From assembly GCA_035534135.1 (NCBI GenBank), contig DATLSL010000037.1:1-51296 (forward strand): DNA of 51,296 bases. The letters run 5' to 3'. Position numbers and translations under genes: made by a program. Shown one piece after another: positions 20,440-22,649 of the stretch; positions within the stretch are counted from its first letter, which is position 1, and each line of letters opens with the position of its first letter. The notes beneath the pieces were generated by a model. That model did not search any database. It was not told where the DNA came from and saw only the letters and a list, made by a program, of their open reading frames with translations. Source of the DNA: Rhodanobacteraceae bacterium. Its GTDB lineage: Bacteria; Pseudomonadota; Gammaproteobacteria; Xanthomonadales; Rhodanobacteraceae.

Positions 20440-20934
20440 ATGCGCAAGCTCGCCCTTTACGCCGCCGTTGCCCTCATTGGCGCGCTCTCGTTGAGCGCCT
20501 GTCAGAAGCAGGCCGGCCAGACCGCACCCCAGGCCCAGCAGGTCGCTCGGCCGACCAGCCCGACCGACACTGCCGGCTGGAAGGCCTATCTGGTGCAGGT
20601 GGTGACCAAGAACATGCAGGGCATGACGGCCAACCAGCCGTATATGTACTACGTGCCGGCCGGCACCGACGACGCCGACGCGCAGGCGCGCCAGCGCCAG
20701 CTCGACAACGTCAGCAGCACCGTCGCCCGCGGTGTGTTGCCGGGCAATCTGATGGCCTTCGGTGGCCCGGATTCCAGCCAGACCGCGCAGATGATCATCG
20801 CCGCGTTCAAGGACGCCCAGCCGGGATCGTTCAAGGGCGTGATCGTGCTGTTCGTGGGCGACAAGTCCGATGAGCAGGGCGTCGCGCAGGCCCTGCAGCC
20901 CAGCGCCGCCATCTTCCACTTCGTGCAGATGTGA
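20440..20934 (+). CDS. Hypothetical lipoprotein
   Basis: GAGG RBS; signal peptide with lipobox LSAC. Confidence 0.8.
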   Translation: MRKLALYAAVALIGALSLSACQKQAGQTAPQAQQVARPTSPTDTAGWKAYLVQVVTKNMQGMTANQPYMYYVPAGTDDADAQARQRQLDNVSSTVARGVLPGNLMAFGGPDSSQTAQMIIAAFKDAQPGSFKGVIVLFVGDKSDEQGVAQALQPSAAIFHFVQM

Positions 20935-21064: not shown

Positions 21065-21115
21065 GGAGTGAGCGCATGGCGCTGAAGATCACCGACGTCT
21101 GCGTCAACTGCGACG
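21065..21115 (+). repeat. Direct repeat A copy 1 (RBS plus first 13 codons of the ferredoxin gene)
   Basis: GGAGTGAGCGCATGGCGCTGAAGATCACCGACGTCTGCGTCAACTGCGACG, identical to 21231-21281 (51 bp). Confidence 0.97.
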
Positions 21116-21237
21116 GCGAACCGGGATTTGCCGCGGGATGCGGTGAAGCGCATCCCGCGCCGGTGAGCGGCCAGCCATGGATGGCTGGACCGAGGGCGCA
21201 CCATGGATGGCTCTGTGCGCGTGTTGAATGGGAGTGA
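21076..21237 (+). CDS. Putative 53-aa leader ORF beginning with the ferredoxin N-terminus
   Basis: MALKITDVCVNCD + GEPGFAAGCGEAHPAPVSGQPWMAGPRAHHGWLCARVEWE*. It has the same RBS as the true gene, and its stop falls within the GGAGTGA RBS region of copy 2. Confidence 0.5.
   Translation: MALKITDVCVNCDGEPGFAAGCGEAHPAPVSGQPWMAGPRAHHGWLCARVEWE
21116..21230 (+). other. Structured element E1 between the duplicated gene starts
   Basis: Stem CGCGGGATGCG/CGCATCCCGCG with GTGAAG loop (21132-21159), flanking CCGG..CCGG, and two CCATGGATGG hairpins; same architecture as 21632-21738. Confidence 0.8.
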
Positions 21238-21281
21238 GCGCATGGCGCTGAAGATCACCGACGTCTGCGTCAACTGCGACG
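21231..21281 (+). repeat. Direct repeat A copy 2
   Basis: Identical to 21065-21115. Confidence 0.97.
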
Positions 21282-21505
21282 TCTGCGAGCCCGTCTGCCC
21301 CAATCAGGCGATCGCGCCCGGTCCCGACTACTACGAAATCAACCCGGCCCTGTGCACCGAGTGTGTAGGTCACCACGACCTGCCGCAGTGCGTCGAGGTC
21401 TGCCCGGTCGAATGCATCTTCGTCGATGACGCCCATGCCGAGTCGCGCGAGCAGCTCGAACTCAAGTACCGCGAGCTGATGCATGCCAGGGCAAGCGCCG
21501 CATGA
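21242..21505 (+). CDS. yfhL: YfhL-family 2[4Fe-4S] ferredoxin
   Basis: CVNCDVCEPVCPN and CTECVGHHDLPQCVEVCPVEC motifs. Confidence 0.93.
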   Translation: MALKITDVCVNCDVCEPVCPNQAIAPGPDYYEINPALCTECVGHHDLPQCVEVCPVECIFVDDAHAESREQLELKYRELMHARASAA

Positions 21506-21549
21506 GCCGACGCCTGTTCGTGTTTCGGCCGGGTGCCTTGTCGAGCCTG

Positions 21550-21631
21550 GTCACCGACGCCGCCATGATAGGGCGAAGAGGCAGACGATGAAGCTGTGGT
21601 CGATCCTGGGCAACTCGCAACGGCTGGATGG
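21550..21631 (+). repeat. Direct repeat B copy 1 (upstream region, RBS and first ~15 codons of the MBL hydrolase gene)
   Basis: 82 bp with 5 mismatches versus 21739-21820. Confidence 0.96.
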
Positions 21632-21635
21632 GTGA
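21588..21635 (+). CDS. Putative 15-aa leader peptide [15 protein letters not shown]
   Basis: Same amino acids as the hydrolase N-terminus; the stop TGA is supplied by the first bases of element E2. Confidence 0.5.
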   Translation: MKLWSILGNSQRLDG

Positions 21636-21738
21636 GCCGGGGTATTCGCGAGTGGCCGTGAAGGGCCACTCGCGCCGGCGAACGCCGGAGGCAGGAGCCG
21701 CAGGCGGGGTGACTTGGCGAGGCAGGAAGCCGAGCGTA
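21632..21738 (+). other. Structured element E2 between the duplicated gene starts
   Basis: Stem CGCGAGTGGCC/GGCCACTCGCG with GTGAAG loop (21647-21674), flanking CCGG..CCGG, hairpins GGC-AGGA-GCC and GGC-AGGAA-GCC. Confidence 0.8.
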
Positions 21739-21820
21739 GTCACCGACGCCGCCGAGATTGGGCGAAGAGGCAGACGATGAAGCTGTGGTCGATCCTGGGC
21801 AACTCGCAACGCCTCGATGG
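21739..21820 (+). repeat. Direct repeat B copy 2
   Basis: Matches 21550-21631 at offset 189. Confidence 0.96.
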
Positions 21821-22649
21821 CGGCGCCATGTTCGGCAACGCGCCCAGGGCGATGTGGTCGCAGTGGATCGCGCCGGATGCCGAGAATCGCATTCCGTTGG
21901 CCTGCCGCTGCCTGCTGGTGGACGACCTCGACGGCAAGACCGTGCTGTTCGAGACCGGCATCGGCGCGTTCTTCGAACCGAAGCTGCGTGAGCGCTACGG
22001 CGTGATCGAGGATCGTCACGTGCTGCTGGACAGCCTCGCGCAGGCCGGCTTCGCGCACGAGGACATCGACGCGGTGGTGCTCTCGCACCTGCACTTCGAC
22101 CATGCCGGAGGTCTGCTGGCGGCGTGGCGCGAGGGCCAGCCGGCGCAGCTGCTGTTTCCCAACGCGACCTATATCGTCGGTCGTGGCCACTGGCAGCGCG
22201 CACTGTCGCCGCATCCGCGCGATCGCGCCTCGTTCATTCCCGAGCTGCTGCCGCTGCTCGAAGCCAGCGCACGGCTGCAGCTGGTGGATGGCGAGTACGC
22301 GGCCGCACTGGGTCCGCGCGTGCGCTTTCACTATTCGGACGGGCATACGCCGGGGCTGATGTTGGCCGAGATCCAGCCCGTGCCCGGTGCCGGCGGTGGC
22401 GTGTTGTTCTGCGCCGACCTGATTCCCGGCCGCGCATGGGTGCATCTACCGATCACCATGGGCTACGACCGCTACCCGGAGCGCCTGATCGACGAGAAGC
22501 GCGACCTGCTCGATGCGGCACGCAAGCGCGGCGTGCGGCTGTTCTTCACTCACGATCACGAGATCGCTCTGGCCGACGTCGTGGTGGACGTGCGCGGGCG
22601 TTACGCCGCGGCGCAGGCGCAACCGCGGCTGGACGCACTGCCGTTATGA
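21777..22649 (+). CDS. MBL-fold metallo-hydrolase
   Basis: [26 protein letters not shown] and FTHD motifs. Confidence 0.93.

Follow-up and report, generated by a model that had tools for sequence, protein, structure and literature searches.

A dispersed gammaproteobacterial repeat with a tandem G·A helix and CsrA-type hairpins, found between duplicated gene starts

Two inserts, E1 and E2, which interrupt the starts of a ferredoxin gene and a hydrolase gene in a Rhodanobacteraceae genome, are copies of a repeat of about 115 bases that is dispersed across the gammaproteobacteria, and the two similar hairpins first noticed in them form its 5' module. The repeat has a covarying core fold closed by a helix with tandem G·A mismatches, two downstream hairpins with GGA loops, a base-exact left junction, and filled and empty alleles among close strains. 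On balance, we lean towards a non-autonomous mobile element, the 5' end of which is joined to a host GG by a REP/RAYT-like single-strand transfer enzyme acting in trans.

The two inserts

The window is the whole stretch of DNA analysed, namely positions 1 to 51,296 (51,296 nucleotides) of contig DATLSL010000037.1 from assembly GCA_035534135.1; its genome is called G000 below. At both E1 and E2 a left copy of the gene start runs into the insert, and a right copy continues into the intact gene. The features, with scores for the covariance model R1 described below, are as follows:

21065-21115, + strand: left copy of the ferredoxin gene start, a 51-bp direct repeat 100% identical to 21231-21281, containing an SD-like GGAG, an ATG at 21076 and 13 codons
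21076-21237, + strand: predicted leader reading frame of E1, 53 codons, made from the left copy and E1
21116-21230, + strand: element copy E1, the 115 nt that separate the two repeats, R1 score 63.6 bits
21116-21121, + strand: 5' word of E1, GCGAAC, the 5' strand of the tandem G·A helix, with the precise left junction before 21116
21132-21159, + strand: core hairpin of E1, 11-bp stem and GTGAAG loop
21163-21168, + strand: 3' word of E1, GTGAGC, the 3' strand of the tandem G·A helix
21169-21191, + strand: GGA hairpin 1 of E1, loop ATGGAT at 21177-21182, matching the CsrA/Rsm consensus ANGGAN
21194-21220, + strand: GGA hairpin 2 of E1, loop ATGGAT at 21203-21208
21231-21281, + strand: right copy of the ferredoxin gene start (51-bp repeat), continuing into the intact gene
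21242-21505, + strand: intact gene for a YfhL-family 4Fe-4S dicluster ferredoxin (NCBIfam NF033683, 116.7 bits, cut-off 86)
21542-21631, + strand: left copy of the MBL-fold hydrolase start, a 90-bp repeat with 7 mismatches, containing the remnant of an older element end, a leader, an ATG at 21588 and 14 codons
21588-21635, + strand: predicted leader reading frame of E2, 15 codons, its TGA stop supplied by the element (GG|G TGA)
21632-21744, + strand: element copy E2, R1 score 71.6 bits
21632-21637 and 21678-21683, + strand: 5' word GTGAGC and 3' word GCGAAC of E2
21647-21674, + strand: core hairpin of E2, 11-bp stem and GTGAAG loop
21684-21705, + strand: GGA hairpin 1 of E2, loop AGGA (CAGGAG), read from the sequence, inner stem found
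21708-21744, + strand: GGA hairpin 2 of E2 (GGTGAC...GTCACC), loop AGGAA
21731-21820, + strand: right copy of the MBL-fold hydrolase start (90-bp repeat), running on into the intact gene
21777-22649, + strand: intact MBL-fold hydrolase gene (best model YtnP-like, 136.5 bits, below the cut-off of 425)

The stop of the E1 leader frame begins 7 nt upstream of the ferredoxin ATG, and the GGA loops of both inserts lie some 25-60 nt upstream of ribosome-binding sites. At the gathering score, Rfam models matched tRNAs alone in the window, and nothing at the inserts. Since contigs from three other DNA runs span E1 and contigs from two span E2, an assembly artefact is ruled out. Upstream, at 20440-20934, a lipoprotein-like frame without an NCBIfam match lies between coaD and the ferredoxin gene, a place that is conserved in relatives.

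The core hairpins and the G·A helix

The preliminary description reported a covarying core hairpin with an invariant GTGAAG loop in both inserts. Re-reading of the sequence confirmed perfect 11-bp stems at 21132-21142/21149-21159 in E1 (loop 21143-21148) and at 21647-21657/21664-21674 in E2 (loop 21658-21663), with four of the eleven pairs differing between the inserts, on both strands each time. The outer CCGG/CCGG helix is present in each, with a one-sided bulge of 7 nt in E1 and 6 nt in E2, and GGYGARC flanks the core on both sides. This pair of hairpins is not due to chance: the pattern matched twice where 0.01 matches were expected, none of 100 shuffles gave two or more, and just two of the 579 GTGAAG words in G000 close a perfect stem of at least eight pairs. 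The invariance of the loop holds for E1 and E2 but not for the family, in which GTGAAG occurs in 5 of 248 parsed copies among 79 different loops. Inverted forms of the loop also occur, with CCAGTGG in 28 and CCACTGG in 8 of 323 rows, and CCTTGAATGG in 22 and CCATTCAAGG in one; the loop sequence is free.

Covariation, which the preliminary description had proposed to seek in a wider set of homologues, was evident in a MAFFT alignment of 16 copies from G000 that had not been fitted to any model. In this alignment 96.3% of cells are paired, both partners vary in 9 of 15 pairs, and the covariation score was reached by none of 500 shuffles; in slid controls, pairing dropped to 18-51%. Model-fitted alignments of 126 and 99 distinct rows agree, though they lean towards the model. 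Folding energy itself picks neither strand nor molecule, since E1 and E2 have z-scores of -3.3 and -3.6 as RNA and -4.4 and -3.5 as DNA, and their reverse strands fold equally well (-4.6 and -4.3 as RNA).

The GYGAR words had been suggested as separate protein-recognition or tertiary-contact sites; this does not hold, as the two flanking words pair together. GYGARC is self-complementary around its central GA, and the words on either side of the core form one helix with a tandem G·A mismatch, in which the closing pair 4-59 covaries (CG in 9 and UA in 7 of the 16 copies). YGAR contexts favour sheared G·A pairs in RNA and in DNA, and A·A can substitute for G·A. A parser that permitted GA or AA alone at the mismatch places, and that read 248 of 322 distinct copies (74 were dropped), found GA/GA in 236 and one AA in 12, with the two closing pairs canonical in 248 and 247 of the 248. 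The 5' words of these copies were GTGAG (157), GCGAG (62), GTGAA (16) and others.

Selection on a single-stranded fold is supported, and the part of the preliminary description that proposed selection on RNA or ssDNA structure stands in so far as the fold covaries, more widely than had been noted. The double changes on which it had relied are weak evidence by themselves, because template switching during replication can create such changes in perfect stems without selection (PMC8794818, in the sections available). Stronger evidence comes from the features that are kept imperfect, namely the G·A/G·A mismatch, a G·U pair and the one-sided bulge. As the repeat is dispersed, and present or absent among close strains, selection for the element's own spread is more likely than selection for a locus-specific RNA function. 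Ribozyme and intron models gave no match at the gathering score for the inserts (twister-sister came closest, at 16.4 bits on the reverse strand, where the cut-off is 34), and E-value scans of 20 and 19 further loci found no TwoAYGGAY or ribozyme match.

Extent of the family

About 20 related copies in G000, a 1.84-Mb, 75%-complete assembly, came to light in BLAST and profile searches, and model R1, built from 16 of these, gave at least 21 matches there. R1 was positive in at least 14 of 16 genomes of the genus, 30 of 121 of the order, 24 of 149 of the class and 7 of 141 of the phylum sample; two matches in the last sample fall outside the class and appear to be coding DNA hit by chance. A pattern scan of genome contigs returned at least 120 loci, with an estimate of about 1100 stretches, and its 80 named records are mostly from Gammaproteobacteria. 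R1 gave 102 matches on 81 loci. Copy number ranges from 0 to 95 per genome, the highest being that of G046, where 95 copies of the pattern contrast with none for a reversed-pattern control. In viral contigs there were two pattern matches, one of them confirmed by R1, and plasmid sequences searched with E1 gave no match.

No Rfam family was found to contain the element, neither E1 nor E2 being matched at the gathering score. No description of it was found in the literature, mainly that outside subscription journals, which included the available parts of PMC4333381, PMC2718517, PMC3184786, PMC9788540, PMC2864571 and the Minerva preprint (10.64898/2026.09.22.753630).

Nested copies occupy the loops of other copies or lie within other repeats, and some stand in frame in coding genes; there are also arrays of copies truncated at the 5' end. 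In G192 a different element, one with inverted repeats, carries the repeat as cargo, so copy number alone is not proof of its own mobility; the G192 copies were also dropped as a guide to the element's ends, being inside another element. That carrier was seen as at least 20 near-identical elements of about 290 bp (L383-L400), with terminal inverted repeats AACCTAAAATC...GATTTTAGGTT. G250 holds convergent doublets bounded by ACAGGATT-type words, which behave as a composite repeat (L402, L406-L410), and a whole element that appears to lie in frame in a long GIY-YIG-domain gene, UvrC-like by our reading, with no long duplication (contig C1, 1459809-1459888, L405). In G000, copies were also seen within runs of GGGAC(T/C)C heptamers, with a shared tail ending in GG (C172:5800, C62:5630 and C125:6370).

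Junctions, targets and duplicated starts

The left junction is exact: host G stands at -1 in all 196 assessable copies and at -2 in 183 of them, counts that are inflated by the GG with which R1 begins (E1 itself follows CG). This GG recurs in the working gene copy in 54 of 61 cases, and from +1 the two sequences diverge. The right end is ragged, and terminal inverted repeats are absent. A flanking repeat anchored at the junction follows 85 of the 196 copies, a count that takes in tandem units; of 3000 random GG anchors, 1 had such a repeat. A first control placed inside the loci gave 24 of 193, raised by arrays. These counts, like those for start copies below, include loci shared by relatives and so repeat some events. 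The flanking repeat is about 20 to over 100 bp long, or absent.

Duplicated starts were found in at least 15 further protein genes, with hosts that include adenylosuccinate synthetase, phosphoglycerate kinase, ribulose-phosphate epimerase, GidA, biotin carrier and a histidine biosynthesis gene. The starts of tRNA genes are duplicated as well, as is that of a gene that we take to be the tmRNA gene. Copies occur in both orientations relative to host genes, and antisense copies duplicate the 3' ends of genes or tRNAs, not their starts. Within one gene the junction shifts, lying 73 or 77 nt into the biotin-carrier gene and 58 or 100 nt into the epimerase gene, and array L126 holds two junctions. 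Some insertion sites recur across families, at tyrosine-recombinase, ThiS, phosphate ABC and tRNA genes. The duplication also begins at GG at L249 and at three tRNA loci of G250, not at many others, as judged without a formal count. At three tRNA genes of G250 a shared tail abuts the CCA end, and at L080, an antisense tRNA case, the repeat extends about 10 nt beyond it.

Many copies without a flanking repeat sit at the last Gly codon of a gene, where GG|GTGA remakes the stop; such a junction was found in 23 of 88 pattern-scan copies, the pattern itself having forced GTGAG. We considered translational bypassing at GG|G TGA but discarded it: with a second, complete copy of the gene, there is no need for it.

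Left and right start copies were compared in 33 pairs, two of which have doubtful start codons, and differ by 32 silent and 19 replacement changes (pS 0.073, pN 0.015). In 11 of the pairs the leader frame runs to the second start, and in 5 it stops at the junction. The repeat provides a worked case of a small sequence entering essential genes without killing them, and a warning to annotators to read duplicated starts and additional leader frames of this kind as scars of insertion.

Presence and absence among relatives

At 5 of 14 loci in the genus both inserts are missing, with a 4-nt overlap between the ferredoxin stop and the hydrolase start. The ferredoxin start is doubled at 3 of the 14 and was undetected at 4, and two or three hydrolase starts were found at 3. 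The E1 site is common to G000, G008 and G013. Among close strains, a contig from run X6 lacks precisely the 166 nt of E1 and one repeat and retains E2, and a contig from run X8 skips the 189 nt of the E2 unit and retains E1. As the skipped parts are incompletely covered in these runs, the contigs are not collapsed assemblies.

The left copy of the ferredoxin start is likely to occupy the original position, with a single copy in G009 and others. At the biotin-carrier gene, the empty site of G000 matches the left-copy context of the filled site in G005, which marks the left copy as the original. In the lower-GC relatives G002, G012 and G001 (L017, L020, L026), the ferredoxin gene looks decayed and the hydrolase gene is intact.

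Proposed transfer by a REP/RAYT-like enzyme

Whereas the junctions, alleles and fold are observed, we infer the joining step, the enzyme and the molecule on which it acts. The transfer enzyme would read the G·A helix and the bulged stem and ignore the loop. Joining at a GG slightly downstream would copy the intervening host sequence, giving the order start-element-start and tandem units; with joining upstream, a deletion would reach as far as the last GG that is tolerated, that of a final Gly codon, with the stop restored by GG|GTGA. Recombination between the repeats could then renew the left copy from the working gene or excise the insert precisely, which fits the excess of silent changes, the exactness of the losses and the position of repeat borders close to start codons. 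Only an insertion after which the gene is still intact would survive, and a leader frame stopping at the second start codon would often accompany it. For the origin of the duplication at first insertion, both a long target duplication and a two-step route fit.

REP, BIME and REPIN sequences, mobilised by the Y1 HUH enzyme TnpA-REP (RAYT), offer the closest parallel. As far as the available parts of PMC3333891 and PMC8266576 describe it, TnpA-REP cuts at a dinucleotide and needs a bulged stem, and in the BIME model the strand is cut, a primer is extended, and a further cut downstream with subsequent joining yields a unit with captured flank. The present repeat is likewise short, non-autonomous and palindromic, with a bulged stem, a dinucleotide junction, tandem arrays and inverted doublets (G046, G250), and capture of flanks has been proposed for REP/BIME as well (PMC3333891, PMC8266576). 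The precise dinucleotide end, the ragged end, the bulge, the arrays, the doublets and the carried flanks match the prediction for an HUH enzyme of this kind. Unlike REP, the element has no GTAG guide at the palindrome foot, joins after GG and not at C|T or C|A, is 110-140 nt long with three hairpins and CsrA-type loops, and often lies inside gene starts, flanked by a duplication of 20-100 bp of host DNA; unlike REP/RAYT, it flanks none of 29 Y1 genes. It works like REP/BIME but departs from it in the GTAG guide, the CT junction and the partner gene. The family is distinguished by its G·A helix, its junction at GG and its CsrA-type loops.

The search for a partner enzyme covered several families. 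No partner was found among Y1 transposases (PF01797) in 10 genomes, Y2 transposases (PF04986) in 5, reverse transcriptases (PF00078) in 9 distinct genomes, or GIY-YIG (PF01541) and DUF559 (PF04480) proteins in 5. G000 (75% complete) and G046 (95 copies, 89% complete) had no Y1, Y2 or reverse-transcriptase match. An element copy stood beside 0 of 29 Y1 loci, taken from 10 genomes that form a small and partly incomplete sample, 0 of 1 Y2 and 0 of 12 reverse-transcriptase loci. There was no transposase among the 145 of 186 neighbouring frames covered with Pfam, which are housekeeping genes instead, and all-against-all clustering of the frames at 281 loci returned host genes and spurious frames alone. 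At two of seven GIY-YIG/DUF559 loci, L435 and L445, copies lie 0.4-1 kb away; the copy at L435 sits in a different palindromic repeat, so these were read as nesting and not as partnership. An enzyme that joins one end at GG would, if new, be interesting in its own right. Separately, Y1 transposase genes with short terminal repeats of their own, unrelated to the element, were seen at L216, L221 and L213 (G013, G088, G014), some of which have a 5' or 3' end that is partly duplicated.

Other mobile sequences share some traits with the repeat. IS91 and ISCR elements move by one-ended rolling-circle transposition, with one precise end and ragged carry-over of flank, and IS1549 and IS1634 produce long, variable target duplications. 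The repeat resembles the former in its one precise end and ragged flank and the latter in its long, variable direct repeats, but it differs from all of them in having neither a transposase gene nor terminal repeats, and the sole Y2 locus has no copy. Like bacterial MITEs, as described in the available parts of PMC3184786, it is small, non-coding, folded, flanked by direct repeats and probably co-transcribed with its neighbours; unlike them, it has no terminal inverted repeats or fixed short target duplication, and just one of its ends is precise.

GGA hairpins, CsrA and alternative routes

Among 171 copies not chosen for the motif, 147 have CA(N)GGA(N)G in the hairpin after the core, against a background of 2.8%, and a second GGA motif is present in 206 of the 248 copies. 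CA(N)GGA(N)G in the loop of a short stem is the CsrA/Rsm consensus (PMC3791407, in the part available). The repeat follows it in hexaloop and pentaloop forms, with the ANGGAN or AGGA in a hairpin loop that characterises CsrA/Rsm-binding RNA, and we predict CsrA binding to its GGA loops wherever these are transcribed together with the host gene. Many gammaproteobacteria, Xanthomonad-like ones included, encode CsrA/RsmA, and csrA is present in G000. In the class sample, csrA occurs in all of the at least 24 element-positive genomes and the element in none of 23 genomes that lack csrA (one-sided Fisher p 0.012, overstated by kinship); the accompanying tally of 126 counts two unpublished genomes, G271 and G184. 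The sponge RNAs CsrB and RsmZ have similar loops on short stems (PMC3791407); unlike these, the repeat has two loops per unit, lies dispersed, probably inside other transcripts, and has no promoter or terminator that could be detected.

The closest Rfam family is TwoAYGGAY (RF01731), which has an extended Pseudomonadota form, is also multicopy and carries two consecutive AYGGAY-like hairpins, and for which CsrA binding and mobile-like spread have been proposed (Minerva preprint, in the part available). E1 aligns to RF01731 positions 49-108 through its two ATGGAT loops and is the sole match in G000, scoring 20.1 bits against a gathering cut-off of 43; the loops of E2 are AGGA and AGGAA. In all six true RF01731 hits compared, a long basal stem that is absent from E1 and E2 encloses both hairpins, and there is no GYGAR helix. 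The 42 RF01731 matches in G376 overlap none of the three listed R1 matches there, and G046 and G250 have no RF01731. The words 'duplicat' and 'target site' are absent from the main text of the Minerva preprint; the structural variants in its supplement could include the present form. Its discussion calls multicopy AYGGAY RNAs mobile-like and leaves a link between mobility and regulation open. The exact junction, the filled and empty alleles in close strains and the mutable structural signature make that link testable.

The CsrA-type loops fit RNA better than single-stranded DNA, which counts against the transfer of a DNA strand. Spread through RNA, in the manner of a bacterial SINE or retrozyme, is an alternative that we regard as unlikely: a transcript running from GYGAR into the 3' flank would be bound by CsrA and reverse-transcribed in trans, and the end of the cDNA would anneal at a host GG. 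The match of both GGA hairpins to an RNA consensus and the co-occurrence with csrA speak for it, as do hosts that are often highly transcribed (tRNAs, tmRNA, ribosomal-protein operons, groEL) and the tails that abut the CCA end in G250. No reverse transcriptase, however, was found in G000, G013, G046, G088, G228 or G255, none of the 12 reverse-transcriptase loci carries the element, copies lie in both orientations relative to host genes, and the repeat at L080 goes past the CCA end; the single RNA run (X20) covers 21383-21550 alone, outside both inserts, and so does not bear on their expression. The fuller form of this reading, in which a SINE-like RNA element co-opts CsrA for its spread and, through duplication of the gene starts in which it lands, places CsrA sites and translationally coupled leaders before housekeeping and tRNA genes across the Gammaproteobacteria, is doubtful; if true, the element would use a host regulator as a cofactor of its spread.

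It is decidedly improbable that the host keeps the repeat as a CsrA-responsive regulatory cassette or sponge, with the covariation arising from selection on an mRNA leader. Although the E1 site is shared by three genomes, other sites recur across families, the GGA loops of E1 and E2 are placed shortly before the ribosome-binding sites of their hosts, and TwoAYGGAY RNAs have been proposed as CsrA sponges (available parts of PMC4333381 and the Minerva discussion), both inserts are precisely lost in close strains and absent from five relatives in the genus. The host genes are, moreover, functionally unrelated, and the nesting of copies in loops, in other repeats and in frame in genes, with copy numbers from 0 to 95, also argues against such a role.

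Least probable of all is an origin without a dedicated enzyme, in which the fold would stall replication, and template switching or recombination at GG microhomology would make the duplications and arrays: the lack of a partner enzyme in any search made, the loop inversions and the 5'-truncated arrays, which reveal template switching, are in keeping with it, but the left junction is base-exact in distant families beside a ragged right end, slippage explains local arrays and not arrival at unrelated loci, and palindrome correction would erase the kept G·A mismatch.

Other repeats in the same genome

G000 contains further repeats that were seen in passing. At C116:12950-13600 and C62:16650-17300 (L037, L042), larger repeats resemble an extended TwoAYGGAY, with a GCTCTTGATCTT run and a CTTTGGTTACTTT hairpin, and each holds a small element nested at GG in a would-be GGA loop. 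Hairpin inserts of the form GGCAGGATGCC appear to lie in frame in genes at C137:7440-7490 and C105:7440-7530, one of them as two tandem copies. Near a GIY-YIG gene there are tandem CGACCGAAGGAAGTCCC units, and CCGCGAAGAGCGCAAAGGACGCGAAAA repeats also occur (C67:854-929 and C68:820-990).
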